From the NCBI RefSeq assembly GCF_024700885.2, contig NZ_CP117016.1: DNA of 64,000 nt. The stretch is one strand, 5' to 3'. Shown in pieces: positions 1 through 59,793 of the stretch. Below the pieces are notes generated by a model. That model did not search any database and was not told the origin of the DNA. It saw only the letters and a program-made list of their open reading frames with translations. Source of the DNA: Escherichia coli. GTDB lineage: Bacteria > Pseudomonadota > Gammaproteobacteria > Enterobacterales > Enterobacteriaceae. A program made the translations under genes and the position numbers. Each line of letters starts with the position of its first letter. Position 1 is the stretch's first letter.

Positions 1-766
1 GATGACGTAAACGCTGGCTACCCGGCTGCGCACCCAGCAATCGGTGCAAAGTGCTGGCATCTTCCGGAATGCGTTTCTTTTGTTCATCGCTCAGCGGTAA
101 CTGGCGCAAAGCCTTGCCGAGAGATTCGGTTAAGCGCGCGGCAGCTTTACCCGTTGGTGCAGCCAGACGGATACGGCAGCGTTCGCCGTCGGCCATTTGA
201 ATTAACGCTGCCAGCAACTTCGCTACGGTGGTCGTTTTACCGGTGCCAGGGCCGCCGGAAATCACCGAGATCCGCCGCGTCAGCGCCACTGCCGCCGCAA
301 CTTTTTGCCAGTTAATTTCATCGCTTACTGGAAAAAGTTTGTCCAGGGTTTGCGCCAGTAGAGCTTCATCAACCTCAATGGCATGATTCACTTCGTTGAA
401 AAAGCGTGCCACTGTGCGCTCGTTACACCACATGCGATTCAAATAAAGACGATCGCCACAGAGGATCATCGGCGTTGGTTCATCTCCCCGGCTGACCGCT
501 TGTGAAGCCAGCAAGCATTCTTCCCAATTTTGTAGCTCACCGATTTCACTGACACAGGTCGCCAACAGCGGATGCGATGCCTCGTTATTTTCCAGTCGTG
601 AAAGCGGCAAACAAACGTGTCCCTCTCCGGCATCATGACTTAACAGTGCCGCCGCGAGGGTGACGGCAGGATGTTCATCTCCCGCCACGGTCAGGGCAAA
701 CTGCACGTCCAGCGGGCGTAGCTGTTTGTGCTCCACAGCTTCCAGTAATTGCTTTTGCAATTTCAT
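1..766 (-). CDS. recD: RecBCD exonuclease V alpha subunit RecD, N-terminal ~255 codons (3' end runs off the window start)
   Basis: Minus-strand frame open from the window edge to ATG at 766..764, overlapping the recB stop (TAATG). Translation starts [13 protein letters not shown] and includes Walker [12 protein letters not shown] (around 230-262). Absent from ORF track because truncated. Confidence 0.9.
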
Positions 767-3700
767 TACGCCTCCTCCAGGGTCATACCGGCAAACATCT
801 CATCCATCAGGGCAATCAACCCGGCATTGGGTCGGGTTGTGTAAATCCCCTGTTGCGGATGTTCTTTATCAACACCACGCAGGAACAGATAGATAACGCC
901 GCCAAAGTGACGATCATAGTCGTAATCAGCAATGCGATGGCGCAGATAACGATGCAGCGCCAGGGTATAAAGCTGATATTGCAGATCATAGCGGTGTGCC
1001 TGCATCGCCGCTGCCATAGCCTGTTGGGTGTAAGCCGAACTGTCTTCACCCAGCCAGTTGGATTTATAGTCGAGCAGGTAATAACGCCCTTCGTGGCGGA
1101 ATACCAGGTCGATAAAGCCTTTTAACATGCCGCGTACCTGCATGAACTCCAGCGGCGGGCAGCCAGCGGATAGCGGATCAAACTGGCGAATTAGTGCATC
1201 AAGCTGGCTGGCGATGAGCGGTTCACTAATCGGCAGGTAAAACTCCATCTCCACCTGTTTATCGCGGTCGGAAAGCTGACTCAGGCTAACACCCGTTTCA
1301 TTGAGAGGTGCCTGGAGGACAGCCGTGATCCACTCGGTCAACACCGGTTCCCACTGCGATTCAAAGCCGCCGAGCTCCAGTTTTTCCTGTACCCAGTTCG
1401 GGTCAACCGGCTGGGTAAAATCGAGGTCTTCAAACAAACTGTGCAAGAATGTCCCCGGTGACGCACCGCGCGGGAACTGATGCGGTGTTAACGTCGGTTC
1501 TTCAACGACGCTGACCACGCCTGCGGCATCAACATCCAGCCGTGGCATCAGATCCTGAGCGATACCGTGACCACGCTGCTGCAAACCGGAGTAGCTGGTG
1601 ACACGCCAGTTATCGCCGGGCAATCGTTGTAGTGTCCTCGCATTCAGTTCTGCAGTTATAGCATCATTAACCTGCCAGGGCTGGTTATCACCCGTTTGTG
1701 CCGTTTGCCAGGCAATATCATCATCGCATAACGCTTCAATACAGGTGCGAAGCCCTGCCGCATCTTGCGGTTCCCCTTTTTGCAGCAAACGCCCGAGCGC
1801 ACTTTGGTGGACGTCGGTGTCACCTTTTTTATCGCCACGACGGCGCACCAGCGGTGCAACGCCGAGACTGCAATGCCAAACCGAACGCGTCAGCGCCACG
1901 TAAAGCAAACGCAGATCTTCCGCCAGACGTTCGGCCTCCGCGAGGTCGACGCTTTCTGGCGCAGCATTAAGATCCAGAACAGCCTCAAACGAGTGGCGAT
2001 CGTGATAGAACGCCTGATCCTGGACGCGGAAATTGGTAATAAATGGCAACCAAACCAGCGGATATTCCAGCCCTTTTGATTTATGGATCGTGACAATCTG
2101 CACCAGATGTTTATCACTTTCGAGGCGCATTTGTTGGCTGGAGGCATTACTGTCTGGCTCGAGGATATGTTGCGATAACCAGCGTACCAGCGCATGTTCA
2201 CTTTCCAGCTGCGTTCCGGCTTCTTGTAGCAGTTCGCTGATATGCAAGATATCGGTAAGACGCCGCTCACCGCCTGCCGTTGCCAGCAAGTTTTCTGCAA
2301 TCTTACGCGCCGACATCAGCGCCCGCAGCATCGGCATAACGCCACGTTTGCGCCAGATTTGCCGATAACCATCGAACTCTTCGACTACCGCATCCCACGC
2401 ATGTTCGTCATTGTTCAGCGTTTCGATATCCAGCGCGTTCAGCCCCATCATTGACGTTGCCAGCGCACTACGCAGGGTGTTCTCACGTTCGGGCGTCATC
2501 ACCGCCTGCAACAACCAAAGCATTTCCTGCGCTTCCAGAGTTTCAAAAACACTGTCGCGGTTCGAAAGGTAAACGGAAGGGATTTCCAGCAACGTTAAGG
2601 CGTCGCGCACCTGGGCGGCCTCCTGGCGGCTGCGCACCAGCACACTGATGTCCGAAGCACGCACCGGACGCGCGTCGTCGCCGTTCATCAGCAACGCTTC
2701 GCCCCGCTGTCCGGCTTGTAGCCAGTCGCGGATTTGCGCAGCACATACCTGCGCCATGGTACTTTGATAGTCGCCAACGCCACAGCTTTCGCCTTCCATC
2801 AGCCACATTTTCATCGCAGGCTGCGTTTCACCTTTAAAGACAAAACGTAACGCCTGATTTTTCCCGGCTGATTTCACTGGAATAAACGGTATTTCGCGAA
2901 ACATGAACGCGTCATCAGTCTGGCTGAAAAGCTTGTTCACACTATTCACCATTCCTGGTGCGGAGCGCCAGTTGGTATCTAAGGTGTAGTGGGCGTGAAC
3001 TTCGCTACGCGCCTTCATATAAGTGAAGATATCCGCACCCCGGAATGCATATATGGCCTGTTTCGGGTCGCCAATCAGCAACAAAGCGGTTTCCGGCTGA
3101 TGGTGCCAGATACGGCGAAAAATTCGGTACTGCTGGGGGTCGGTATCCTGAAATTCATCGATCATTGCCACCGGGAATCGCGTACGGATCGCCGCTGCCA
3201 ACACCTCGCCGCTTTCGCTACGCAGCGCGGAATCGAGCCGACTTAACATGTCATCAAAACCCAATTCACCACGGCGGCGTTTTTCACGCGCTACTGTTTC
3301 GCGGATCTCAGCCAATGCGCGGGTTATCACCAGATCACGGATCGACAATGGTTCTGCAAGCAGTTGATCGATCGCCTCAAACAGTGGATGTCGCGGGGTT
3401 TCCCCCCCGGCTTTCGTGCGATCTTCTAAGAAACGCTGAGAGAATTTTTCCAGCGACTCCGGTAACTGATAACTGTTGGTCTCTTCTTCTGCCCAAGCGC
3501 TGATCTTCTCGATCCATTTAGCCTGATTGCTACGGTTAAACTTGCGTCGATCAATACCAGAAGATTCGATCAGCGCATCCAGTTCACCCACTGCGTCGCG
3601 CCACTGCTGTTTTACCGTATCAATACGCGCCACAATTTGCGCGTGGCGGGAAGCCAGCGTTTCATCATCGGGCGGCGGTGCTTTGATAACCGGTGCTTCG

Positions 3701-4308
3701 CCTTGCAGATAACGATTAATATCGCGCAGCAACGCCTGCGGCCCTTTCCAGGTTTCAAAGACCACCTGGGCAATTTCACGCGGCAGCGGGTAGCAGTGGC
3801 GACGCCAGAAATCGGCGCAGGCCTGGTAGCGTAGCAGAGACTCATCTTCAATCAGCTGCTGCTCAAACAGCATGCCGGATTCAAAGGCATTCAGGTTGAG
3901 CATGCGCTGGCAAAAACCGTGAATAGTAAAGACTGCCGCTTCATCCATCTGCCGTTCGGCTAACAACAACCACTGCGCGGCTTGCGCTTTATCGTCGATC
4001 TCTTCCAGCAGGCGTTCGTACAGTGGATTGTCGGTGGTTTCACGCAGACAGGCGATGCGCAACTCGTGGATATTGCTACGGATACGACCGCGCAATTCTG
4101 CCGTGGCAGCCTCGGTAAAGGTGACCACCAGCAGTTCTTCAACGGTCAGCGGGCGGGGAAAGGCGGCAGAACCGCCTAGTCCAAGTAACAGGCGCAAATA
4201 GAGCGCCGCAATCGTAAAGGTTTTGCCTGTGCCGGCAGAGGCTTCAATCAGGCGCTCGCCCTGTAAGGGCAAGCGCAAAGGATCTAGTGTCTCGGCGACA
4301 TCACTCAT
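766..4308 (-). CDS. recB: RecBCD helicase/nuclease beta subunit RecB
   Basis: ORF 766..4317; product [13 protein letters not shown]... with UvrD-type helicase Walker A (AGTGKTF) and C-terminal nuclease domain; likely start is the second Met (4308). Confidence 0.95.
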
Positions 4309-7189
4309 TCTTTTCACTCATCAGGGGCATTGTTTGCTGCAACGCGCTGACGTTCTCCCACACTTTCCAGCCTTCAGGATGCACATATTCGGCTTTCCCG
4401 TTCTGGCTGCCGGAAATCTGCGACAGAATAGCCATGCCTTGCGGCTCGACCACCGCCTGATGGAAGAAATCAGCAAGTTTTTGCGGCGTCAGCAGTTTTA
4501 TCTGGGCCACGATTTTATCACGCGAATCGAAGCGCATATTGCCGCGATCGAAATCTTTACTTAACTTCGATGCTTCTTCGCCGAGCGTTTGCGGTGCCTG
4601 CAGCATCTGGGTTATTACCGCCTGCTGGATTTGCGCAAACTCTTCTGGCTTCATCGTCCGCAATTTTGCCTCTGCGGTTGGGAAAAACGCCTTGTAACGC
4701 TCCCACAAGAATGAAGGCTGTTTATCATTGCTTTGCAACAGGAAGCCCATGCCCCACTGACGCCCCACGCTCATTGGAAACGCAAACACGGCATAGCCCA
4801 ACTGTTCTTCGGTACGCAACTGATTGTAGAACCACGGCTGTACGATCTGCCCCAACAGAGAGCTATAGGCTGAGCTGGTGTATTCATCGTAGCCAGTCGG
4901 TACAAATACCGCTGCCAGTGCGGAGTCGGTACTGTTACCGGCTTTTTCAAAGATGACGGATTGTTTTTTATCGACCACGACATCTTTGTTACGACACCAC
5001 TCCGAACCATCAGCGCCCAACTGTTTTTGCACATCGCGTGCCAGCGTTGTTGCCTGGGCTTCGGTCATGTTGCCAATAACCATAAACTCTGGTCGAGCCC
5101 CTGATTTTAAGGCGTCGCGATAGGCCAGCACCTCTTTCAAAGTGATTGAAGGCAAAATTTTGCGCCGTTCATCTCGCGAGAAGTACGGCACTTGCGAGAG
5201 CATCTGCGCGGGCATAATCGCCTGCTCGAACGCTTTGCCCTTTTCTGCGGAATCCATCATCTGGTTATACCAGGACTTCGCCTGCTCAAGCTGATCTTCC
5301 GTAGCGGTATAGCTAAAGTAGCCCTCGAGCAATGCCTGGAACAGCTGCGGCAGGCGCTGGGTGTAACCATTGGCATTAACCATAAGGCCGTTGTTAGCGT
5401 TGGTGGAAAAACTTATGCCACCAACCGACGCCTGGTTGCTTAACTGATCAAGCGCCAGCCCTGCGAGATAATCATTGAGCGCAAACATCACCTGATTGCG
5501 GGCGCTATCCATGGCTTTCGGATTACGCAAAATCAGGCTGACATCAGCTTTGGGTTCGCTGGAAAAATAACGGCTTGGCGCATAGACCACACGCAGATTC
5601 GACTCATCAACAATAAGCTCTGGATGGTCATATTTCTTCTCTGACTTAATCAGCGAGAAATCGTCAGGAATATAGGGGTTAAGCTCTGGCAAAGAGAGCG
5701 CAATGTCGGCGGCTTTTTTCTGCCAGTCAGCGAAAGTTTGTGCGCTAATTTTATCTACCTGATACGGCGCATCGACAAAGTAAGCCGTTTTGTTGTGCGG
5801 CTCTTTCGGGCTGATATACCAGATACGCGCATTCTGCGGCGTCATCATCGCCAGGCGTTCTTTTACTGCTTTAGCGTCGTACCGATCGGCAATATTGACT
5901 GCATCCAGCGTATGCTCAACAGGAACGCGAATCATGGTATCTGCCAGCCATTCGACGTAATCCATATCACGGGTGATTGACGGATAACGGAAGTCGATAT
6001 CCAGCACATTCGCCAGTTCATCGAAGTATTGTTTATCGATCCCTTTTTCACGTAACAGATTGAGGTAGCTAAAAATGGCCGCCACAACCTGATCGCGATT
6101 CGCCAGACCTTTATCGGTTAAAGAAGCAGAGATCGCTAATACGCCGCTGTTGCCGTTGACGATAGGATCGGAGTTGGCGCTAATGCCCTCAACTAATCCC
6201 TGCTTTTGCAGCCAGTCAGAAAGTGTACCTGGGCTGCGATTACCAATCAGATAGGTAATCAATTCATCCGTTTTACTACGGAACTTCGCTGAGTTGTTCT
6301 CGATGCGAAACTCAACGCGCAGAACTTTACGCGGCAGCGCCGGGACGTAATGAATGATAATGCCCTTTTGCGCGTCGGTGACTACCGGCACGGTGATTTC
6401 CGGTTTTTTGCTCTCGTTGTTCGGCACGCGACCAAAGGTGTCCGCCGCCATTTTTGCCAACTCCGGCAGCGGTTTATTGCTGTAAATAACCGCCTTCATC
6501 AGATTGGCGGAATAGTACTTCTCGTGGAAATCTTTCAGCGCCTGCTGCACCGGATTTCCGGGTTTGTCGCTTAAAGTTTCGAGGTTACCACCAGAAAACT
6601 TTGAACCGGGGTGTGCCGGGTTAATGGTTTCTGCGCTGACCTGCGCCATGCGCATCCCGTCACGCGTACGCGCCATGGTTAATTCGGCATTCACTGCATT
6701 ACGTTCACGTTCGGCGTATTTCTTGTCGAGCAAGGGTTCTGCAATAGCGTCCGCCAGGCGGTCTACCGCACCGGGCAAGGCGTCGTTCTCAACTTCCAGA
6801 TAGAAAGCCGTGCGATACGGTGCCGTGCTGGCATTGTGACTGCCGCCGTGCATTTTGAGATATTCGGCCAGACTGTCAGCCTGCGGGTACTTTTTCGACC
6901 CCATCAGACTCATATGTTCAAGGTAATGTGCCAGCCCCTGGTACGCCTCGGGATCTTCCAGCGACCCAACGGGAACCACCAGCGCCGAGAGCGATTTAAC
7001 CGCCTGCGGATCAGAAACCAGCAAGACCACCATACCGTTATCCAGACGTATAGCCTGATACTGGCGGTTATCTTTATCACTTTTACGGATGGTTTCCTGA
7101 ATCGGCTGCCATCCCGTTTCTGCCTGACTTAAGGGTGCCCAAAGGGCAACAAACAACAATAATGCTTTGAACCAGGTGCTGCGGGGCAT
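4301..7189 (-). CDS. ptrA: Protease III (pitrilysin), M16 zinc metalloprotease
   Basis: 962-aa ORF with signal peptide and inverted zinc motif HYLEH; stop overlaps recB start. Confidence 0.95.
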   Translation of the reverse strand: MPRSTWFKALLLFVALWAPLSQAETGWQPIQETIRKSDKDNRQYQAIRLDNGMVVLLVSDPQAVKSLSALVVPVGSLEDPEAYQGLAHYLEHMSLMGSKKYPQADSLAEYLKMHGGSHNASTAPYRTAFYLEVENDALPGAVDRLADAIAEPLLDKKYAERERNAVNAELTMARTRDGMRMAQVSAETINPAHPGSKFSGGNLETLSDKPGNPVQQALKDFHEKYYSANLMKAVIYSNKPLPELAKMAADTFGRVPNNESKKPEITVPVVTDAQKGIIIHYVPALPRKVLRVEFRIENNSAKFRSKTDELITYLIGNRSPGTLSDWLQKQGLVEGISANSDPIVNGNSGVLAISASLTDKGLANRDQVVAAIFSYLNLLREKGIDKQYFDELANVLDIDFRYPSITRDMDYVEWLADTMIRVPVEHTLDAVNIADRYDAKAVKERLAMMTPQNARIWYISPKEPHNKTAYFVDAPYQVDKISAQTFADWQKKAADIALSLPELNPYIPDDFSLIKSEKKYDHPELIVDESNLRVVYAPSRYFSSEPKADVSLILRNPKAMDSARNQVMFALNDYLAGLALDQLSNQASVGGISFSTNANNGLMVNANGYTQRLPQLFQALLEGYFSYTATEDQLEQAKSWYNQMMDSAEKGKAFEQAIMPAQMLSQVPYFSRDERRKILPSITLKEVLAYRDALKSGARPEFMVIGNMTEAQATTLARDVQKQLGADGSEWCRNKDVVVDKKQSVIFEKAGNSTDSALAAVFVPTGYDEYTSSAYSSLLGQIVQPWFYNQLRTEEQLGYAVFAFPMSVGRQWGMGFLLQSNDKQPSFLWERYKAFFPTAEAKLRTMKPEEFAQIQQAVITQMLQAPQTLGEEASKLSKDFDRGNMRFDSRDKIVAQIKLLTPQKLADFFHQAVVEPQGMAILSQISGSQNGKAEYVHPEGWKVWENVSALQQTMPLMSEKNE

Positions 7190-7364
7190 TCACGGACCTC
7201 ATAATCAACTTTATTTTCTGACCAGATTCAACAGGTTAACGCAAATCATCTGCCAGAATTTAATCTTGTGCTGCACGAGTCAGCCTATGTCTATATATCC
7301 ATCAGTCCGTGACTGGTGCGCATCATAATGTAAGCGAATGAATTGCGCAATTTTTATACAACAC

Positions 7365-10300
7365 TCATGACTGATTAAAGCGAAACAGCGGTAACAGGAA
7401 ACGTTGCGACTGTTCAACGATGGCCTCCATTGTCTCTGGTGTTAATTGCCGCCAGAGCCGTTGATACCAGATATCATCACCTTCGCCACGCACCATCATG
7501 TTGCCTTCGTAAGCCTGAAGGAATTTCGTACGGGCTTTTTGCAACGTGGAATCGTCATCCAGCATGGCATCGTTTTGCGCGTCATAACAGGTTTTTAGCC
7601 ACGCGCCGCCACTTTCAGGTAACACCAGCAATGGCGCGGACATTCCTTCACGATACCCCTCAATCAGTTGTGAGAGGTAATGCAAAGCCTGTTCGGCTGC
7701 AAGCGGCGGAAAACGCCACTCGCCGTCTTTGCGTAGAAAAAGGCGACTTTCACCATTACCACCGCTGGCACAGTAGACAAGGTGTTCCAGCCAAAGTTGC
7801 ATTCCCTGTGCCACACTTAATAAAGAGGGACGCCAGCGCAACAGGCCATCCGGCTGCACCTGCGGCAACCAGCCAGTTATCTGCACACCGTTGCAGGCGA
7901 GATCAATTTCCATACTCTGCCCCGGCTGGCGACAGGCAATGACTCTATCGGCAAGCTGCTGCATCTCCTGGCACTGTGTTTCCCAGAAAATTTCACCAAA
8001 AGCGCCATACGGTAAATCCCCTGCCGCCCGGAAGCGGCGGAACAAGCGTTCGGCATCATCCTGCTCAACCAGTGCATTCAATAACTGCTGATTGATTTGA
8101 TAACGGCTAAGCCCTTCCAGAATAAATGGCTCGGTGTCGGGGATTTCGCTGTCTTCGGTACGGAAGTTCACCTGCAAACGCATCTGGAAAAATGCCCGCA
8201 CCGGATGTGCCCAGAATCGTTGTAGCGTTTCCAGCGGCACGGTTTCCGGTAAGGTAAACGGCAGCGGCTGAACAAATTCAGAATGTGCTTTACCAGCCTG
8301 GCTGGCCGCAGGTAGCCATTCACGAGCATAACTTTGTCGTTCGCCTGGCTGGTAGTTTTGCGGATCAAACGGCATTCGGGTATGGAGGCAAGTAAGATGC
8401 GCTTTTACCCTTGCCTCGCTTTCATCACAGTTGAGCGCCTCATCGCCCGGTAGATAATGACTTTGTCCGATGTAGTCGATCAGTTCCTGCACCAGTACCG
8501 ACGGGAAACGTTCACTGTTATCCTGAATGGAACGCCCGATATAGCTGATATAGAGTTTTTGCTGCGCGGAAATTAACGCTTCCAGGAACAGATAGCGGTC
8601 ATCATCGCGACGGCTACGGTCGCCACGCTTCGGTTTCTGGCTCATCAGGTCAAAGCCCAATGGCGCAAGCTGGCGTGGATAAACGCCGTCGTTCATTCCC
8701 AGCAGGCAAACCACTTTGAATGGGATGGAACGCATTGGCATCAGAGTACAAATGTTAACCGGTCCGGCGAGAAAACGCTGGCTGATACGTTCCTGATCCA
8801 GGCGCTGTGCCAGTTCATCACGCAATAGTGACAGCGGCACCGCGTCGCCATACTGCGCACCTAAACCTTCGGCGATAATCGCCTGCCATTGTTGTTCGAT
8901 CAGCGTCATCGCCGCTTCGGTTTCCGCATCCGGCAGGAAGAAGGCGTTGAGCATATCGCGACAAACCGGCAACCACTCTTCCAGCGGACGCTCCTGCGCC
9001 AGCCCGCGACGCCAGATGTTTAGCTGCATTAGCAGTGAAGCCAGATGCCCCACCAGTTCTGCAATTAAGCCGCTCGATTCATCATAAGGTAGAACCGATT
9101 GCCACTCGCCCTGCGCGCTCTCCATCGCGTAGCCCAGCAACATACGCGTCAGGCCAAATCGCCAGGTGTGTTGTCCGGTGGCCGGGAGTTCCAGCTCGCG
9201 AACGTTGTCGTCATCTATCCCCCAACGAATGCCGGATTCGTTGACCCACTGGCGTAAATAACGCAGCCCTTCTTCGGTGATGTCAAACCGCGCCGCCAGC
9301 ACCGGCACATCCAGCAGCGCCAGCACATCCTCTGACACAAAGCGACTGTCAGGCAGTGATAACAGGCTGATAAACGCTTCCAGTACCGGATGTGACTGCC
9401 GCGCCCGACGGTCGGAAATGGCGTAAGGCAGGTAACGATCCGCAGGTGCGCTACCAAACACAGCCTGAATAAACGGACTGTAGCTGTCGATGTCAGCCAC
9501 CATCACGATGATGTCGCGCGGAGTAAGTGTCGGGTCTTCCTCCAGCATCGCCAGCAGGCGATCGTGTAAAACTTCAACTTCACGCTGCGGGCTATGGCAA
9601 ACGTGAAAGGTGATACTGCTATCCAGTGGATCAAGCGGGCGTTTGTTATCGCTACGGGAAAACTCTTCGATGTTCACACCCGCAACGGCGCGGTTTTCCA
9701 GTTCCAGAATGTCAGACTGAATGTTATGCAGCAGGTTATCTGGCGTGACATCGACAAAAGCGTCCAGCTCCTGGCTGCCCTCCAGGTCAGAAAGAAGATA
9801 AATGTAGTCGCGCCCAAGCTTGCCCCATGAGGCCAGCAGCGGGTTACCGACATCCTGTTCACCATCGCTGTTAAAGAGCTGTCCGGCATTTTCGCTGTCG
9901 CGAAATAGCGGTAATTCGCGATCTTCAAAACTGTGTCGGCGCTGGCGAGTCAGCAGTTTCGCCAGATAAGCAGGATCTTTAATGTCGCCCCAGTAATAAC
10001 GGCAGGGGTTGGTAAACAGGAGATGGATTTCAATATGTTTACCCAGCGCCTGTAGCGCCTGGAGATAAACAGGCGGTAACGCGGAAATACCGCATATAAA
10101 GACGCGCGAAGGTAGCCCCGGCGGGCAGGTCGTCGCGGACTCCAGCGTTTCGATAAAGCGCTGATAGAGATTGGCGCGGTGCCAGCGCGGTTGCCCGAGT
10201 TCGTCGGTATATTCCACCAACGCCTTCCACAACGGCGCTTGCCAGGCCTGTGCTTCTCCCAGCCCTTCAACCAAATGTCCTGTTTCCCACTGTGCCAGCC

Positions 10301-10733
10301 AGTCCGGACGATAGACCAGATACTGGTCAAACAGGTCCGCCGCTTTTGAAGAAAGCTGGAACAGTTTTCGCTTGTCGCTATCGTCAGTCAGATAATGCCG
10401 CAACAGGGTAAAGTCTTCGCGCTCCAACAGTTGCGGCAGCAGAGTCATCAGTTTCCAGCTCATGCTCTGTTTGTTAAAGGCGCTCTCTTTGGGGATTTCC
10501 GGTAACACCCGGACGAACATATCCCAGATAAAGCTCGCTGGCAGCGGAAAATCAATGTTTGCCGCAATACCAAACTTTTGCGACAGGGTCATTTGCAGCC
10601 ACTGCGCCATACCGGTACTTTGCACCAGAATCATCTCTGGTTCGAAAGGATCGTCCAGCCGTTCGCGTTCGACAATAAACTCCATCAACGCTTCCAGCAC
10701 GTCCAGACGATTGGAATGGTAGACCCTTAACAT
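7365..10733 (-). CDS. recC: RecBCD subunit RecC
   Basis: 1122-aa ORF starting MLRVYHSNRLDVLEALM; position between ptrA and ppdC. Confidence 0.95.
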   Translation of the reverse strand: MLRVYHSNRLDVLEALMEFIVERERLDDPFEPEMILVQSTGMAQWLQMTLSQKFGIAANIDFPLPASFIWDMFVRVLPEIPKESAFNKQSMSWKLMTLLPQLLEREDFTLLRHYLTDDSDKRKLFQLSSKAADLFDQYLVYRPDWLAQWETGHLVEGLGEAQAWQAPLWKALVEYTDELGQPRWHRANLYQRFIETLESATTCPPGLPSRVFICGISALPPVYLQALQALGKHIEIHLLFTNPCRYYWGDIKDPAYLAKLLTRQRRHSFEDRELPLFRDSENAGQLFNSDGEQDVGNPLLASWGKLGRDYIYLLSDLEGSQELDAFVDVTPDNLLHNIQSDILELENRAVAGVNIEEFSRSDNKRPLDPLDSSITFHVCHSPQREVEVLHDRLLAMLEEDPTLTPRDIIVMVADIDSYSPFIQAVFGSAPADRYLPYAISDRRARQSHPVLEAFISLLSLPDSRFVSEDVLALLDVPVLAARFDITEEGLRYLRQWVNESGIRWGIDDDNVRELELPATGQHTWRFGLTRMLLGYAMESAQGEWQSVLPYDESSGLIAELVGHLASLLMQLNIWRRGLAQERPLEEWLPVCRDMLNAFFLPDAETEAAMTLIEQQWQAIIAEGLGAQYGDAVPLSLLRDELAQRLDQERISQRFLAGPVNICTLMPMRSIPFKVVCLLGMNDGVYPRQLAPLGFDLMSQKPKRGDRSRRDDDRYLFLEALISAQQKLYISYIGRSIQDNSERFPSVLVQELIDYIGQSHYLPGDEALNCDESEARVKAHLTCLHTRMPFDPQNYQPGERQSYAREWLPAASQAGKAHSEFVQPLPFTLPETVPLETLQRFWAHPVRAFFQMRLQVNFRTEDSEIPDTEPFILEGLSRYQINQQLLNALVEQDDAERLFRRFRAAGDLPYGAFGEIFWETQCQEMQQLADRVIACRQPGQSMEIDLACNGVQITGWLPQVQPDGLLRWRPSLLSVAQGMQLWLEHLVYCASGGNGESRLFLRKDGEWRFPPLAAEQALHYLSQLIEGYREGMSAPLLVLPESGGAWLKTCYDAQNDAMLDDDSTLQKARTKFLQAYEGNMMVRGEGDDIWYQRLWRQLTPETMEAIVEQSQRFLLPLFRFNQS

Positions 10734-10745
10734 AGCGGCTCCTGA

Positions 10746-11069
10746 CTACTGACGATTCGGGCAATGCAGGCGGGTCATCTCGCCTTCTCTGCCCCCGGGT
10801 GAAACTAGCGTAACGCTGATGCTGACACATCCCGCCTGCGATGTCTGCATTCGGTTTACCTGCCAGTTGGCAGGTGGCGAAATCGCACGCAGTTGCGTTT
10901 GCTGCCAGCCATGCCGCCAGAGCTGTTGGTACTGATTTCTGCTGGCAAGACTGTTCATTAATGTTCGCTGGAAACCCGATAACGCAGTGACAATCATCAC
11001 CATCAACACCATCGCCAACATTACCTCCGGCAGGCTAAAGCCTTGTTGATTCTTCAGGGAAGCTGACAT
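10746..11069 (-). CDS. ppdC: Prepilin peptidase-dependent protein C (pseudopilin-like)
   Basis: Internal Met of ORF 10746..11156 gives 107 aa [23 protein letters not shown] (N-terminal prepilin-type motif); overlaps ygdB stop. Confidence 0.8.
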
Positions 11070-11461
11070 AACGCCCTCTCTTTCAGCGGACAAAAATCGC
11101 TCCAGCCGCGTGGCGAAAAAACAATGTTTCCATCGATGACTTCTCCTGTTCGCCACAACGAAACGCCTTCATAACCGGCAATCAATAAGGCTTCATTATC
11201 TGCCAATAAACGCAGACAAACCCGGGCACCGGTGGCAGCGTACAGTAAGCACTGAACTGCGGGCTGCGTCTGCCAGGAGTGCATTTTTCCCCACTCCAGC
11301 GCCGACTGAACGATGGCCTGGCGGCGCAATGACTGACTTTCCATGCTCACGCGAGAGGCAAAACTGCGATCCTGTTGGCTCATTCCTTGTAATAGCAAGC
11401 TACCCAAAACCAGCAGCATAAGGACCAGAGCCAGTGACGAAACACCCTTTTCGCGGTTCAC
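11054..11461 (-). CDS. ygdB: Uncharacterized pseudopilin-operon protein YgdB
   Basis: 135-aa ORF with hydrophobic N-terminus; overlapping (coupled) with ppdB and ppdC. Confidence 0.8.
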
Positions 11462-12021
11462 AGGTTGGATCCTGTCACGCTATAACTGGCATCCACCACG
11501 GTTTGCGGATCAGCCTTGCTGGCAGCGTGCATATTAACCGTCAACACCGGCGAGAAACCGCTGACATCCTGTCGGGTAACCTGAAAAGTGTCGATAATGA
11601 TGGCATCCGGATTAGTGACTTTATCCCAGCCCTTACCTTCACAGGATGTCGCACCGCGTAGCGTTTCCAGCACATGCTCCTTCAGACGAAATCCAATCTG
11701 GTCGGACTCTTTTACCGGTTCGCGATCCCAGATACCGTTACTGTTCGCATCCCACTGCACAATGATACAGTCACCCTGTCCGACAATTTCCAGCCCTTCG
11801 CCGGTACAGCTGCCATGACAATAACCCGCCCTCTGGAGATGCTTCGCGACGGTAAATACCCGCAGCCAGATTTCATCTTCCAGCGCCAGCTTACGGGTGC
11901 TCGTTAAACTTTCACGCTGTAACGCAGGCAGAAAGCGTGCTGCCCCCAGCAACAATACGCTACTGATCGCCATAGCAATCAACACTTCCAGCAGAGAAAA
12001 ACCTAGCTCTTTTACAGGCAT
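11458..12021 (-). CDS. ppdB: Prepilin peptidase-dependent protein B
   Basis: Internal Met of ORF 11458..12261 gives 187 aa [21 protein letters not shown] (type IV pilin-like leader/hydrophobic segment). Confidence 0.8.
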
Positions 12022-12482
12022 CCTTCTGTTTCTCCTTGCTGACAAAGCCGGAGTCTTCCCCACGGCGAAACCACCAGCCACCACTCGCCCGTTGAGTTTT
12101 TGAAGCGAATATGCCCGGCCCATGCGGTATTGCGCAGGCCAAAGAAAGCAAGCGAAGGTGTCAGGTCGCTCATTTCGACTTCGGGCCAGCGTGGCACAAA
12201 GACCAATGGTGAACTGCCATGACAGGTATTCGCCCCAGCAACGGAACTCACCAGGCACCATAACGTCCCCTCCCTGATAACACTGATACTGTGGTCGCGG
12301 TTATGCCAGTTGGCATCTTCACGTAAATAGAGCAAATAGTCCCGCGCCTGGCTGGCGGTTTGCCAAAGCCGTTGCGACTGCTGCCAATATTGCCAGCCAT
12401 AGAGCCCACTTGCGCTTAGCATGACCAGAATCAGCATCGCGACCAGCGTTTCAATCAGCGTATAACCACGTTGTGTTTTCAT
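12012..12482 (-). CDS. ppdA: Prepilin peptidase-dependent protein A
   Basis: 156-aa [25 protein letters not shown] (prepilin N-terminal motif). Confidence 0.85.
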
Positions 12483-20974: not shown

Positions 20975-24341
<3,367 letters not shown>

Positions 24342-24407: not shown

Positions 24408-24495
24408 AAAAAAAACCTGCGCATCCGCGCAGGTTGGTGCAAGAGACAGGGTACGAAGAGCGTACCGAATAATCTCACCAATCAATACCTCTGGG
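24408..24495 (-). ncRNA. omrA: Small regulatory RNA OmrA
   Basis: Minus strand reads CCCAGAGGTATTGATTGGTGAGATTATTCGGTACGCTCTTCGTACCCTGTCTCTTGCACCAACCTGCGCGGATGCGCAGGTTTTTTTT (88 nt) with terminal GC hairpin plus U-run; between aas and galR. Confidence 0.85.
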
Positions 24496-24610: not shown

Positions 24611-24692
24611 AAAAAAAACCTGCGCATCTGCGCAGGCTGGTGTAATTCATGTGCTCAACCCGAAGTTGACTTCACCTATCAATACCTCTGGG
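24611..24692 (-). ncRNA. omrB: Small regulatory RNA OmrB
   Basis: Paralogous copy sharing the 5' end CCCAGAGGTATTGAT and the 3' terminator CCTGCGCAGATGCGCAGG plus U-run with omrA; about 115 bp from omrA. Confidence 0.85.
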
Positions 24693-27327: not shown

Positions 27328-28263
27328 ATGGCCGCCGTTAACTTACGTCATATTGAAATTTTTCATGCGGTAATGACCGCCGGAAGCCTGACTGAGGCGG
27401 CACACCTGCTACACACCTCACAGCCAACTGTCAGCCGCGAACTGGCGCGCTTTGAGAAGGTGATCGGGCTGAAATTGTTTGAGCGCGTACGTGGACGATT
27501 GCATCCTACCGTGCAAGGACTGCGTCTGTTTGAAGAAGTGCAACGATCCTGGTACGGACTGGATCGCATTGTCAGCGCCGCAGAAAGTCTGCGCGAGTTT
27601 CGCCAGGGAGAACTGTCTATTGCCTGCCTGCCGGTCTTTTCGCAATCTTTTTTACCGCAGCTCCTGCAACCCTTTCTGGCACGTTATCCCGATGTCAGCT
27701 TAAATATCGTGCCCCAGGAATCACCGCTACTTGAAGAGTGGCTCTCGGCCCAGCGTCATGATTTAGGACTCACTGAGACACTCCATACGCCTGCGGGAAC
27801 AGAACGTACCGAATTACTCTCTTTAGATGAAGTGTGTGTGTTACCTCCGGGTCATCCGCTGGCGGCAAAAGAGATATTAACGCCAGAAGATTTTCACAGT
27901 GAGAACTACATCAGCCTTTCCCGTACTGACAGCTATCGCCAGTTGCTGGATCAATTGTTTACTGAACATCAGGTTAAACGACGCATGATCGTAGAAACCC
28001 ACAGCGCCGCGTCAGTCTGCGCAATGGTACGGGCGGGGGTAGGTGTTTCGGTGGTTAACCCGCTCACCGCACTGGATTATGCGGCAAGCGGTTTAGTGGT
28101 GCGGCGGTTCAGTATTGCGGTTCCGTTCACCGTCAGCCTGATCCGCCCCCTGCACCGCCCGTCATCAGCGCTGGTTCAGGCGTTTAGTGGGCATTTACAA
28201 GCGGGGTTACCGAAACTGGTCACTTCTCTTGACGCTATTTTGTCGTCAGCTACGACAGCATAA
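27328..28263 (+). CDS. lysR: LysR-type transcriptional activator of lysA
   Basis: 311-aa ORF with N-terminal HTH; divergent from lysA. Confidence 0.95.
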
Positions 28264-35842: not shown

Positions 35843-36475
35843 ATGGGGCTTTGTAGTCGTTATAAAAGTCTTACATGCAATAGTTGCTCAATGCATTGCC
35901 AAATAATGCCAGAAGAGTCACCGCGTTTGCAGTATTGCGCAAACTCGTGTTTTTGTATGTGGCCCGAAGAAAGTTCATATTTTAATCGTGGTGTGGTGGA
36001 AGGTATCTTAACAAAAAACCACAATGCGAGATTAAGCGGATATATTTTTGTCGATTTTTCAGTAAGTTTTTTACGTCTATTCCTTGAAAAAGACTGGATT
36101 GACTATCTTGCAAGTACTGACATGGGGATTGTTTTAGTCAGCGACCGAAATATGCAATCGTTAGCTAACTACTGGCGAAAACACAACTCTGCAATATCTG
36201 CTGTCATATATAATGATGATGGTCTTGATGTTGCCAATGAAAAGATCAGACAACTATTTATTGGTCGTTATTTATCATTTACCAGAGGGAACACATTAAC
36301 TCAGATGGAATTCACCATAATGGGATATATGGTTTCTGGTTATAATCCATATCAGATTGCTGAAGTTCTGGATATGGATATCCGTAGCATCTACGCGTAC
36401 AAGCAACGAATCGAAAAGAGAATGGGTGGTAAAATAAACGAGTTATTTATTCGTTCACATTCGGTCCAACATTGA
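35843..36475 (+). CDS. yqeH: LuxR/FixJ-type HTH transcriptional regulator (ETT2-island remnant)
   Basis: AT-rich ORF; strong RBS GGGAGG 9 nt upstream of the Met at 35843 (ORF track frame opens at 35783); C-terminal LuxR-like HTH segment QMEFTIMGYMVSGYNPYQIAEVLDMDIRSIYAYKQRIEKRMG. Confidence 0.7.
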   Translation: MGLCSRYKSLTCNSCSMHCQIMPEESPRLQYCANSCFCMWPEESSYFNRGVVEGILTKNHNARLSGYIFVDFSVSFLRLFLEKDWIDYLASTDMGIVLVSDRNMQSLANYWRKHNSAISAVIYNDDGLDVANEKIRQLFIGRYLSFTRGNTLTQMEFTIMGYMVSGYNPYQIAEVLDMDIRSIYAYKQRIEKRMGGKINELFIRSHSVQH

Positions 36476-36688
36476 TACTCAATAATCTGCCAGAATCATA
36501 CTCTGCTTATACGGGCATCTATTGAAATGCCCGTATTTTACAAATAAGCAGTACCCCCAAGAGTAAACAACATGGTATTTAAAACCATCACACGAAAAAT
36601 TCAGAAGCATTACGAAATATGAATTTACAAACAGGTGATGCTGCCAACTTACTGATTTAGTGTATGATGGTGTTTTTGAGGTGCTCCA

Positions 36689-36964
36689 GTGGCTTCTGTT
36701 TCTATCAGCTGTCCCTCCTGTTCAGCTACTGACGGGGTGGTGCGTAACGGCAAAAGCACCGCCGGACATCAGCGCTATCTCTGCTCTCACTGCCGTAAAA
36801 CATGGCAACTGCAGTTCACTTACACCGCTTCTCAACCCGGTACGCACCAGAAAATCATTGATATGGCCATGAATGGCGTTGGATGCCGGGCAACTGCCCG
36901 CATTATGGGCGTTGGCCTCAACACGATTTTACGTCACTTAAAAAACTCAGGCCGCAGTCGGTAA
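36689..36964 (+). CDS. insA: IS1 InsA (transposition inhibitor / N-terminal part of InsAB' transposase)
   Basis: 91-aa [43 protein letters not shown] (zinc-finger CxxC...CxxC). Confidence 0.9.
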
Positions 36965-37386
36965 CCTCGCGCATACAGCCGGGCAGTGACGTCATCGTCT
37001 GCGCGGAAATGGACGAACAGTGGGGCTATGTCGGGGCTAAATCGCGCCAGCGCTGGCTGTTTTACGCGTATGACAGTCTCCGGAAGACGGTTGTTGCGCA
37101 CGTATTCGGTGAACGCACTATGGCGACGCTGGGGCGTCTTATGAGCCTGCTGTCACCCTTTGACGTGGTGATATGGATGACGGATGGCTGGCCGCTGTAT
37201 GAATCCCGCCTGAAGGGAAAGCTGCACGTAATCAGCAAGCGATATACGCAGCGAATTGAGCGGCATAACCTGAATCTGAGGCAGCACCTGGCACGGCTGG
37301 GACGGAAGTCGCTGTCGTTCTCAAAATCGGTGGAGCTGCATGACAAAGTCATCGGGCATTATCTGAACATAAAACACTATCAATAA
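36883..37386 (+). CDS. insB: IS1 InsB frame (expressed as InsAB' transposase by -1 frameshift)
   Basis: ORF in the -1 frame relative to insA; slippery A6C motif at 36940-36946 inside the insA/insB overlap. Confidence 0.85.
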
Positions 37387-37638
37387 GTTGGAGTCATTAC
37401 CCAGTCTGTCGATGACATTACAATGCCAGGATGGGCTTTATCTTCACGTTGTGCTATCGCGGTGTGAGAGGTGCAACTGCCGCCAACGTTAGGTTATACT
37501 GTCATCTCACCGTGTAACTTAACGTGACAGTTACTAAGGGCGGATCACAATGGTAGAACTCCTAAGCAAATTAAATAGGTAACTGTTTAAGTTGCTGACA
37601 GAGAAGACTTTTTTGGTCTTCTCCACCTGGGGAGATTC

Positions 37639-37712
37639 TGGAGCGGGCGAAGGGAATCGAACCCTCGTATAGAGCTTGGGAAGCTCTCGTTCTACCATTG
37701 AACTACGCCCGC
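37639..37712 (-). tRNA. glyU: tRNA-Gly (anticodon CCC)
   Basis: Minus strand reads GCGGGCGTAGTTCAATGGTAGAACGAGAGCTTCCCAAGCTCTATACGAGGGTTCGATTCCCTTCGCCCGCTCCA; cloverleaf with anticodon CCC and encoded CCA end. Confidence 0.9.
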
Positions 37713-41266: not shown

Positions 41267-42145
41267 ATGTTTGATTTTGCTTCTTACCATCGCGCAGCAA
41301 CCCTTGCCGATGCCATCAACCTGCTGGCTGACAACCCACAGGCCAAACTGCTCGCCGGTGGCACTGACGTACTGATTCAGCTCCACCATCACAATGACCG
41401 TTATCGCCATATTGTTGATATTCATAATCTGGCGGAGCTGCGGGGAATTACGCTAGCGGAAGATGGCTCACTACGTATCGGCTCTGCAACGACATTTACC
41501 CAGCTCATTGAAGATCCTGTAACTCAACGTCATCTCCCAGCGTTATGTGCTGCGGCCTCGTCCATTGCCGGACCGCAGATCCGTAACGTCGCTACCTACG
41601 GTGGAAATATTTGCAACGGTGCTACCAGTGCAGATTCTGCCACGCCAACGCTAATTTATGACGCGAAACTGGAGATTCACTCCCCGCGCGGTGTTCGTTT
41701 CGTCCCGATTAATGGCTTTCACACTGGGCCGGGCAAAGTGTCTCTTGAGCATGACGAAATCCTTGTCGCCTTTCATTTTCCGCCCCAGCCGAAAGAACAC
41801 GCGGGCAGCGCGCATTTTAAATATGCCATGCGCGACGCAATGGATATTTCAACGATTGGCTGCGCCGCACATTGCCGACTGGATAACGGCAATTTCAGCG
41901 AATTACGCCTGGCATTTGGTGTTGCCGCGCCAACGCCAATTCGCTGCCAACATGCCGAACAGACTGCACAAAATGCGCCATTAAACCTGCAAACACTGGA
42001 AGCCATCAGCGAATCAGTCCTGCAAGATGTCGCCCCGCGTTCTTCATGGCGGGCCAGTAAAGAGTTTCGTCTGCATCTCATCCAGACGATGACCAAAAAA
42101 GTGATTAGCGAAGCCGTCGCCGCGGCGGGGGGAAAATTGCAATGA
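41267..42145 (+). CDS. xdhB: Xanthine dehydrogenase FAD-binding subunit
   Basis: 292-aa CO dehydrogenase flavoprotein-like ORF (GGTDVL motif); overlaps xdhC start (ATGA). Confidence 0.95.
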
Positions 42146-42621
42146 ATCACAGCGAAACAATCACCATCGAATGCACCATTAACGGGATGCCTTTTCAGCT
42201 TCACGCCGCACCAGGCACGCCGCTCTCGGAATTACTCCGCGAACAAGGACTGCTAAGTGTCAAACAAGGGTGCTGCGTGGGTGAATGTGGTGCCTGTACG
42301 GTGCTGGTCGACGGCACAGCAATAGACAGTTGCTTATACCTTGCCGCCTGGGCTGAAGGAAAAGAGATCCGCACGCTGGAAGGTGAAGCGAAAGGCGGAA
42401 AACTTTCTCATGTACAGCAGGCTTATGCTAAATCCGGCGCAGTGCAGTGCGGGTTTTGTACGCCTGGCCTGATTATGGCTACCACAGCAATGCTGGCGAA
42501 ACCACGCGAGAAGCCATTAACCATTACGGAAATTCGTCGCGGACTGGCGGGAAATCTTTGTCGCTGCACGGGGTATCAGATGATTGTAAATACAGTTCTG
42601 GATTGCGAGAAAACGAAGTAA
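42142..42621 (+). CDS. xdhC: Xanthine dehydrogenase [2Fe-2S] subunit
   Basis: 159-aa ORF with both 2Fe-2S cysteine motifs ([11 protein letters not shown] ... QCGFCTPG ... CRCTGY). Confidence 0.95.
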
Positions 42622-59013: not shown

Positions 59014-59793
59014 ATGATTGAACAATTTTTCAGGCCCGACTCTGTCGAACAGGCGCTGGAACTGAAGCGCCGCTACAAGGATGAAGCCGTCTGGTTCGCC
59101 GGGGGCAGCAAACTCAACGCTACACCAACCCGTACCGATAAAAAGATTGCCATTTCCTTACAGGATCTGGAACTGGACTGGGTTGACTGGGATAACGGTG
59201 CACTGCGGATTGGCGCAATGTCTCGCTTGCAGCCACTGCGTGATGCGCGATTTATTCCTGCAGCACTGCGTGAAGCCCTCGGCTTTGTCTACTCTCGCCA
59301 TGTTCGTAATCAGTCGACCATTGGTGGTGAAATCGCCGCCCGGCAGGAAGAGTCTGTGCTGCTTCCCGTCCTGCTGGCACTGGATGCTGAACTGGTTTTT
59401 GGCAATGGCGAAACACTGTCAATCGAAGAGTACCTGGCCTGCCCATGCGATCGCCTGCTAACCGAAATTATCATTAAAGATCCGTATCGCACCTGTGCGA
59501 CCCGCAAAATTAGCCGTTCTCAGGCAGGTTTAACCGTCGTGACGGCAGCCGTTGCAATGACAGACCACGACGGTATGCGAATTGCGCTGGATGGCGTCGC
59601 CAGTAAAGCCCTGCGTCTGCACGATGTTGAAAAACAAAATCTGGAAGGCAATGCACTTGAACAGGCTGTCGCCAACGCCATTTTCCCGCAGGAAGATTTG
59701 CGGGGCAGCGTGGCCTATAAACGCTATATCACGGGAGTTCTGGTAGCCGACCTTTATGCCGACTGCCAACAGGCTGGGGAGGAAGCCGTATGA
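59014..59793 (+). CDS. ygfM: FAD-binding molybdopterin dehydrogenase subunit
   Basis: 259-aa CO dehydrogenase flavoprotein-like ORF; overlaps xdhD start by 4 nt. Confidence 0.9.
   Translation: MIEQFFRPDSVEQALELKRRYKDEAVWFAGGSKLNATPTRTDKKIAISLQDLELDWVDWDNGALRIGAMSRLQPLRDARFIPAALREALGFVYSRHVRNQSTIGGEIAARQEESVLLPVLLALDAELVFGNGETLSIEEYLACPCDRLLTEIIIKDPYRTCATRKISRSQAGLTVVTAAVAMTDHDGMRIALDGVASKALRLHDVEKQNLEGNALEQAVANAIFPQEDLRGSVAYKRYITGVLVADLYADCQQAGEEAV

Follow-up and report, generated by a model that had tools for sequence, protein, structure and literature searches.

Part of the downstream initiation at the −1 (TAATG), −4 (ATGA) and −8 (ATGNNTGA) stop/start overlaps of recB/recD, xdhB/xdhC, ygfM/xdhD and ptrA/recB is probably fed by translation of the upstream gene, a reading to which we give a probability of roughly 0.6. 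Judged from the sequence, translational coupling of these pairs is plausible, and a dependence of the downstream genes on upstream translation is inferred here from the anatomy of the junctions, their conservation and an asymmetry in Shine-Dalgarno (SD) sequence and RNA structure between the recD and recB starts. The combination of an SD-assisted recD and an SD-less recB offers a concrete and testable route by which Hfq at the ptrA ribosome-binding site (RBS) could lead to the very low level of RecB. The window analysed is a stretch of 64,000 nt from the Escherichia coli chromosome, and all strand coordinates are counted within it (Table 1).

Table 1. Position of the overlaps, coding sequences and regulatory elements in the 64,000-nt window.
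Feature	Position	Strand	Basis
recB stop/recD start overlap, TAATG, −1 spacing	764..768	−	Direct reading; PGAP CDS ends (recD ..766, recB 766..4308)
ptrA stop/recB start overlap, ATGAGTGA, −8 spacing	4301..4308	−	Direct reading and annotation
xdhB stop/xdhC start overlap, ATGA, −4	42142..42145	+	Direct reading and annotation
ygfM stop/xdhD start overlap, ATGA, −4	59790..59793	+	Direct reading and annotation
recD CDS, N-terminal 255 codons, extending past the window edge	1..766	−	PGAP; matches residues 1-255 of 1W36_D
recB CDS, 1180 aa	766..4308	−	PGAP; matches 1W36_B residues 1-1180
ptrA CDS, pitrilysin, M16 peptidase, first gene of the ptrA-recB-recD operon	4301..7189	−	PGAP; Pfam Peptidase_M16; PMC12342828
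Shine-Dalgarno of recD, GGAGGAGG	771..778	−	Encoded by the last recB codons (Leu-Glu-Glu-Ala)
recB leader GAAAAGA, purine/A-rich, without Shine-Dalgarno, inside ptrA	4309..4315	−	SD duplex scoring
Counterpart of the 36-nt Hfq-binding region, ptrA 5′UTR	7204..7239	−	Sequence reading; 3 substitutions vs the K-12 sequence printed in PMC12342828

All four pairs are adjacent, co-directional protein-coding genes, as annotated by PGAP and with their proteins identified by Pfam and PDB matches, and all four junctions fit the spacing motifs TAATG/TGATG, NTGA or NTGNNTGA, the motif classes for −1, −4 and −8 overlaps being defined as in PMC12548453. Direct reading of the minus strand indicated that the recB TAA (768-766) and the recD ATG (766-764) have one base in common, in the context ...GAGGAGGCG TAATG AAA..., and that the recB ATG (4308-4306) and the ptrA TGA (4303-4301) form an 8-nt overlap in the context ...GAAAAGA ATGAGTGA TGTC.... 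PGAP places the CDS ends at the same positions in E. coli genomes that are identical to the window or nearly so, the comparison genomes L001 and L003 differing from the window at 45 of 32,000 and 1 of 44,001 bases, respectively, with 0 indels. The single shared nucleotide at recB/recD, the overlap of the ptrA stop with the recB start and the 4-nt overlaps at both xdh junctions, all described in the initial annotation, are thus exact on direct reading, and both of the latter read ATGA. The end coordinate that it gave, 4317, is only an in-frame GTG at the start of the longest ORF, which was rejected as the recB start: all 81 loci retain the ATG at 4308, whereas the GTG is not conserved.

Overlaps of −1, −4 and −8 nt between a stop and the next start belong to the textbook picture of operons and represent the three enriched spacing classes in prokaryotes. 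They are not unusual within the window either, where 8 of the 34 co-directional CDS pairs overlap, the four further cases being ygdB/ppdC (−16), ppdB/ygdB (−4), ppdA/ppdB (−10) and aas/lplT (−8). The overlaps studied here are a common operon feature that was catalogued earlier, and the table of K-12 pairs in Huber 2023 includes these exact pairs (PMC10666635). The −4 class arises easily, three of its four bases coming from the start codon (PMC12548453), and its abundance is therefore partly mutational and not all selected. By itself, an overlap proves neither coupling nor 1:1 output.

Conservation was determined in 80 Enterobacteriaceae species plus the window, which provided 81 ptrA/recB and 79 recB/recD loci, counts that overstate the number of independent observations because the sampled species are related. 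An overlap of recB and recD, at −4 or −1, was found in 79/79 loci, and one of ptrA and recB in 79/81, with spacings of −4 (n=45), −8 (n=32) and −20 (n=2), and in single loci of +2 and about +413; the ptrA stop lay no more than 20 nt from the recB ATG in 80/81 loci. The −20 overlaps occur in two Kosakonia loci and reflect a stop loss (ATGAGAGA). The recC-ptrA spacer of these loci came in 30 different lengths, ranging from 110 to 186 nt with a single outlier of 15 nt. The overlapped state is held far tighter than this true spacer, although its class shifts among −4, −1, −8 and −20. Supportively, the median spacing of COG pairs is −4 for both RecB to RecD (n=318) and RecC to RecB (n=258), and for the xdh pairs the COG-level median is −3.4 (COG1319@COG1529) (PMC10666635 supplement).

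The two junctions of ptrA-recB-recD are built differently, the recD start being SD-assisted and the recB start SD-less. The duplex of the recD SD with the 16S 3′ end was scored at −12.1 kcal/mol in the window and at a median of −10.0 kcal/mol across the family, with values of −6 kcal/mol or lower in 99% of loci. Its GGAG core at −12 to −9 of recD was present in 68-72 of 73 distinct contexts, despite 64 different 8-aa versions of the RecB C-terminal tail encoded in the same stretch; the SD of recD is conserved at the nucleotide level inside a highly variable protein tail. For recB, duplex scoring detected no SD above background in the whole family, the values being −2.5 kcal/mol in the window and −3.0 kcal/mol as the family median vs −2.5 kcal/mol for random recB-internal 18-mers. 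Positions −15 to −1 of recB are composed of 45% A and 8% C, and its start region has the lowest opening energy among the tested sites, with a median of 6.8 vs 13.4 kcal/mol at internal control positions, while the recD start region opens at 10.4 kcal/mol vs the same 13.4 kcal/mol at random positions inside recB. In the two loci that lack the ptrA/recB overlap, L020 and L068, the recB SD scored −5.8 and −5.9 kcal/mol, the best of any spacing class except the −4 class (n=2).

The xdh junctions carry SDs like that of recD, a G-rich xdhC SD at 42127-42133 upstream of the ATGA (−9.4 kcal/mol) and the xdhD SD GGGGAGGA at 59776-59783 (−11.3 kcal/mol). Pfam assigned a FAD module to XdhB and a 2Fe-2S module to XdhC, a FAD module only to YgfM, and 2Fe-2S plus Mo-cofactor domains to XdhD. 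These complementary FAD, Fe-S and Mo modules suggest that XdhB/XdhC and YgfM/XdhD are complex partners, and xdhABC is an operon (PMC10666635 supplement).

The genes ptrA, recB and recD constitute one operon (Kalita et al. 2025, PMC12342828), and recC, 175 nt upstream of ptrA, belongs to another transcription unit. A consensus scan, by nature weak evidence, returned a single weak promoter-like site, deep in ptrA, and at the junctions nothing that convincingly resembled a promoter or a terminator; a recB promoter within ptrA was rejected, the lone weak match lying 2.5 kb upstream of recB and falling below shuffle expectation. Subunits of E. coli heteromers show a 4.5-fold enrichment of short overlaps (PMC10666635), and the initial annotation had read the present ones as serving stoichiometric co-expression of complex subunits. 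This interpretation stands for RecB and RecD in so far as both proteins occur together, as chains B and D, in PDB entries 1W36, 3K70, 6SJB and others. It fails for ptrA/recB, as PtrA is by Pfam an M16 periplasmic protease and no RecBCD subunit, and ptrA/recB bears the label 'CMPLX not' in Huber 2023 (PMC10666635). Moreover, since recC is transcribed apart, coupling cannot set the stoichiometry of RecBCD. Not every overlap should be taken as a subunit-stoichiometry device.

Upstream of the operon, the counterpart of the Hfq-binding region stops 14 nt before the ptrA ATG and adjoins the ptrA SD (GAGG). In K-12, each recB mRNA yielded 16.3 RecB proteins once the 36-nt Hfq site was deleted, compared with 7.9 when it was intact, while the recB mRNA itself fell by half; the authors mentioned a possible ptrA-recB coupling (PMC12342828). 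Given the halved mRNA, the effect on RecB may not pass only via ptrA translation. In 2025, Brown and Wade named the passing of translational regulation from one gene to the next as a main function of coupling.

How upstream translation would feed the downstream genes can be outlined from the positions of the start codons. Each downstream start lies within the footprint of a ribosome that terminates on its upstream neighbour, so that its initiation is most likely partly upstream-fed, through termination-linked reinitiation or facilitated initiation. At recB/recD, the strong conserved SD 5 nt before the ATG could retain the terminating ribosome or its small subunit, could also recruit free 30S subunits, and might thereby keep RecD output near RecB output, the two being subunits of one enzyme. 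At ptrA/recB, which offers only an A-rich, weakly structured leader, recB would be translated inefficiently and mostly by ribosomes delivered from ptrA translation, a coupling that would be unrelated to complex stoichiometry; if recB is fed in this way, Hfq bound by the ptrA RBS, 2.9 kb upstream, could therefore limit RecB translation. No direct test of coupling on any of the four pairs was found in the searchable literature. For other native E. coli −4 pairs coupling was measured in 4 of 5 (Huber 2019, PMC6728339); it depends strongly on distance (Huber 2023, PMC10666635) and is abolished by a spacing of 20 nt (PMC6728339, PMC10666635). Depletion of RRF left coupling in E. coli unchanged genome-wide, overlapping pairs included (PMC7538156), a result that speaks against a dominant role of reinitiation.

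The overlaps might instead have arisen incidentally, through genome compaction and mutations that come easily, as when a stop becomes embedded in ATGA or a lost stop is replaced by the next out-of-frame one, with the downstream genes initiating de novo and the overlap having no regulatory meaning. We regard this as rather unlikely, while several observations are in its favour. The SDs of recD, xdhC and xdhD are strong (−12.1, −9.4 and −11.3 kcal/mol) and could also allow independent initiation, their start regions are not sequestered, the stop-loss route is visible in the Kosakonia loci, and the four other overlaps of the window pair genes not known as complex partners; besides, de novo initiation is favoured for E. 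coli by Saito et al. 2020 (PMC7538156), and bioBF was found to be uncoupled (PMC6728339). Compaction does not readily account for overlaps kept in 79/79 and 79/81 loci while the neighbouring recC-ptrA spacer varies freely. Nor does it suit recB, whose lack of any SD makes efficient independent initiation unlikely, and whose translation efficiency is controlled by an Hfq site adjoining the RBS of ptrA (PMC12342828).

Coupling by RNA unfolding, where structure masks the downstream RBS, upstream ribosomes open it and a free 30S subunit initiates, is one of the two accepted coupling models (PMC7538156), and opening of −15 to +12 still costs about 9 kcal/mol at the recB/recD and ptrA/recB junctions of the window. 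The structural data make it improbable here. Folded over 100 nt, none of the four junctions exceeds shuffled sequence in stability (z of 0.08, −0.34, 0.71 and 0.09), random positions within recB carry more structure than the recB and recD start regions, and Rfam at the gathering threshold found no element at the junctions of the window; no stable local structure masking a downstream start was observed. Elsewhere in the window Rfam matched OmrA/B and a tRNA only.

The SD-less recB start may tentatively be regarded as a dedicated 'ribosome hand-over' site. RecB, at fewer than about 10 molecules per cell, would then be made almost only by a small fixed fraction of the ribosomes finishing ptrA, and ptrA would be kept at this position in Enterobacteriaceae as the ribosome-delivering replacement of recC, relaying to RecB the Hfq control exerted at the ptrA RBS. 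Hints of such a hand-over are the closeness of the ptrA stop to the recB ATG in 80/81 loci and the SD scores of L020 and L068 (n=2).

Among known systems, the closest are the termination-reinitiation (TeRe) pairs hyfH/I, astD/B, ydbH/ynbE and menD/H (Huber 2019, 2023), which are likewise co-directional, with −4 or −1 spacing. As in the window, these pairs have an SD within the upstream 3′ end, are often heteromer subunits and keep their spacing across taxa; their coupling was measured by reporter fusions, whereas the window pairs are known here from sequence. Such an SD inside the upstream 3′ end is present for recD, xdhC and xdhD and absent for recB, so that ptrA/recB, unlike most TeRe pairs, has no intragenic SD. 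The pair bioB/bioF shares its ATGA architecture with xdhB/xdhC and ygfM/xdhD, and bioF is initiated de novo despite a weak SD and the −4 overlap (PMC6728339); the ATGA architecture alone is therefore no proof of coupling. In the L11 operon, rplK-rplA, a regulator at the upstream RBS likewise sets the amount of the downstream protein, its translational repression being transmitted by coupling; in the present case Hfq, next to the RBS of ptrA, would be the regulator and the translation efficiency of RecB the quantity that changes. Compared with rplK-rplA, the coupling link of ptrA-recB is a deduced one, the mRNA level shifted too in the mutant, and PtrA and RecB are functionally unrelated. In the ancestral order recC-recB-recD, the median spacing is −4 at both junctions, and recB/recD of Enterobacteriaceae fits this arrangement. 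In E. coli and related bacteria, the position upstream of recB is taken by ptrA (Cromie 2009, cited through PMC12342828); in contrast to the ancestral order, recB of E. coli is thus overlapped by the gene of an unrelated protease, ptrA, and not by recC.

Direct reading of the sequence confirmed that the four stop/start junctions of the initial annotation are all exact as described, and all genes that it named were found in the window. PGAP coordinates transfer directly to the window, because it differs from two fetched annotated loci at 45/32000 and 1/44001 bases with no change in length. Positions 1-8000 match several complete E. coli chromosomes at 100% identity and have matches in 5425/5426 E. 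coli genomes, and the layout of the remainder is the same as in strain MLI114. On the minus strand, the recB/recD junction reads ...CTGGAGGAGGCG-TAATG-AAATTG (recB stop TAA, 768-766; recD ATG, 766-764), and the ptrA/recB junction reads ...GAAAAGA-ATGAGTGA-TGTC (recB ATG, 4308-4306; ptrA TGA, 4303-4301), an 8-nt overlap. Both xdhB/xdhC (42142-42145) and ygfM/xdhD (59790-59793) share a 4-nt ATGA. The outer coordinate of the finding, 4317, is an in-frame GTG that opens the longest recB ORF; it was rejected as the recB start, as ATG was found in 81/81 compared loci and the GTG is unconserved.

Genes at the overlapping junctions, with recC (PGAP)
Gene	Coordinates	Strand
recD	..766	-
recB	766-4308	-
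ptrA	4301-7189	-
recC	7365-10733	-
xdhB	41267-42145	+
xdhC	42142-42621	+
ygfM	59014-59793	+
xdhD	59790-62660	+

Elsewhere in the window, the interval between yqeH and tRNA-Gly (35843-37712) carries an IS1A-family element at 36689-37386 (+); in strain elppa4 this interval is occupied by ~27 kb of the ETT2 type III secretion island (including yqeI...sctC), which the window strain lacks. The aas-galR intergenic region contains two tandem OmrA/OmrB sRNA genes at 24408-24495 and 24611-24692 (-) (Rfam RF00079, 96.6 and 86.1 bits), which are missing from the fetched PGAP tables, and the 3' ends of the convergent lysR (+) and ygeA (-) share 14 nt (28250-28263).

Stop/start overlap is not unusual within the window, where 8/34 co-directional CDS pairs overlap, including four not listed initially: ygdB/ppdC (-16), ppdB/ygdB (-4), ppdA/ppdB (-10) and aas/lplT (-8) (minus strand, 10746-12482 and 20975-24320). 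Only a few bases separate ygfK/ssnA (+2; ssnA Shine-Dalgarno (SD) score -10.6 kcal/mol) and lgt/thyA (+6). The spacing classes at the four junctions are the three enriched in prokaryotes, namely -4 (NTGA), -1 (TGATG/TAATG) and -8 (NTGNNTGA) (PMC12548453), and Huber et al. 2023 (PMC10666635) tabulate the same K-12 pairs at the same distances in their supplement. The overlap feature is ordinary and has been reported before, in general terms as well as for the pairs at issue.

Conservation was assayed at the recB locus of 80 species-representative Enterobacteriaceae genomes (RecB identity 68-98%), with orthologous starts and stops placed using alignments with the E. coli proteins; the sampled species are related, so the counts are not independent events. 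recB and recD overlapped in 79/79 evaluable loci, through ATGA or GTGA (-4) in 69 and through TAATG or TGATG (-1), the form of Escherichia and a few other lineages, in 10. ptrA and recB overlapped in 79/81 loci including the window, by 4 nt in 45, 8 nt in 32 and 20 nt in 2, the last arising where the TGA of ATGAGTGA became AGA and ptrA extends to the next stop. These two loci (Kosakonia pseudosacchari and Enterobacter sp. Bisph1, around position 4001 of the fetched loci), with the -8 motif mutated to ATGAGAGA and ptrA reading 12 nt further into recB, are a natural case of overlap growth via stop loss. The exceptions were one locus with a 2-nt gap and that of Intestinirhabdus alba, with the genes ~413 nt apart. 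The latter, the sole locus with ptrA and recB clearly apart, has a recB SD, GAGGA (-5.8 kcal/mol), better than that of most overlapping loci; its spacer (3588-4000) contains no ORF of at least 80 aa, and on the opposite strand a GC hairpin followed by a T-run. As a control, the recC-ptrA spacer took 30 different lengths in 77 of the same loci, mostly 110-186 nt; a 15-nt spacer in one of them may be a start-codon mis-call by the script. Near-universal overlap beside such a variable spacer indicates that the overlapped state is maintained though its exact form changes. Beyond the family, a COG-pair table gives a median of -4 for RecB->RecD (quartiles -4 and -1, n=318) and for RecC->RecB (n=258) (PMC10666635).

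The two recBD starts differ in their predicted SD pairing. The recD SD, GGAGGAGG (778-771, -), scored -12.1 kcal/mol as a duplex with the 16S 3' end, the strongest of 22 window starts scored; across the family the median was -10.0 kcal/mol, with at most -6 in 99% of loci. Its GGAG core at -12 to -9 was kept in 68-72/73 distinct sequence contexts, whereas the last eight RecB residues occurred in 64 different versions, which points to selection on nucleotides rather than protein. At the recB start no SD was seen: the score was -2.5 kcal/mol in the window, with a family median of -3.0, indistinguishable from random 18-mers inside recB (-2.5). The recB leader is rich in purines and in A (45% A, 8% C at -15 to -1) and the easiest to open among the regions compared, with a median predicted cost of freeing -15 to +12 of 6.8 kcal/mol, vs 10.4 for recD and 13.4 for random internal sites. 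This contrast in SD strength, with recD strongly SD-assisted and recB SD-less at its start, is kept across Enterobacteriaceae and is the only addition of the present analysis.

The initial annotation had read the overlaps as consistent with stoichiometric co-expression of complex subunits, which is partly supported. The reading is sound for RecB and RecD, which occur together as chains in solved complexes, and plausible for XdhB/XdhC, FAD and 2Fe-2S modules. It may extend to YgfM/XdhD by domain complementarity, YgfM being an FAD module and the adjacent XdhD a fused 2Fe-2S and Mo-cofactor protein; the PMC10666635 supplement counts recB/recD (-1) and xdhB/xdhC (-4) among the pairs encoding a complex, with ygfM/xdhD (-4) and ptrA/recB (-8) flagged as not complex. 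The reading fails for ptrA/recB, which was rejected as a subunit pair since PtrA is a periplasmic protease of the M16 family. The gene for the third RecBCD subunit, recC, belongs to a separate transcription unit (PMC12342828), 175 nt upstream of ptrA, and coupling therefore cannot balance the whole enzyme. In E. coli, heteromer genes are enriched for short overlaps (30.4% vs 6.8%), although for ~70% of short-distance pairs no complex is known (PMC10666635).

As for mechanism, a stop 1-8 nt from the next start would place the downstream start and SD inside the footprint of the terminating ribosome. This geometry, together with coupling measured in other E. coli pairs, makes termination-linked initiation the most likely reading, probably SD-assisted at recB->recD, xdhB->xdhC and ygfM->xdhD; at ptrA->recB it would proceed independently of an SD, presumably with low efficiency. 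The SDs of recD, xdhC (-9.4 kcal/mol) and xdhD (-11.3 kcal/mol) are strong and would also permit independent initiation at these genes. Coupling through RNA unfolding found no support in the predicted structures, either from opening energies or from the folds of the four junctions, none of which was more stable than shuffled sequence (z = 0.08, -0.34, 0.71, 0.09); no Rfam family matched at these junctions. The coupling mechanism in E. coli is itself disputed, as coupling was unchanged by RRF depletion (PMC7538156).

Termination-linked initiation from ptrA to recB would fit the published RecB data. RecB is present at <10 molecules per cell, and deletion of the main Hfq site, which adjoins the ptrA ribosome-binding site, increased the RecB yield per mRNA from 7.9 to 16.3 proteins (PMC12342828). 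The window counterpart of this site in the ptrA 5'UTR (7239-7204, -; TTAACcTGTTGAATCTGGtCAGAAAATaAAGTTGAT) carries 3 substitutions vs K-12; an A-rich ARN-type stretch is kept in this region. Coupling is known to pass translational regulation on to the downstream gene (Brown and Wade 2025). The recD/recB SD contrast offers a testable route for the Hfq effect on RecB.

Among native E. coli pairs of such architecture outside the four junctions, tight coupling was found in 4/5 (PMC6728339); intragenic SDs usually help coupling and ~20 nt of extra spacing abolishes it (PMC10666635). bioB/bioF is a -4 pair of E. coli without coupling (PMC6728339).
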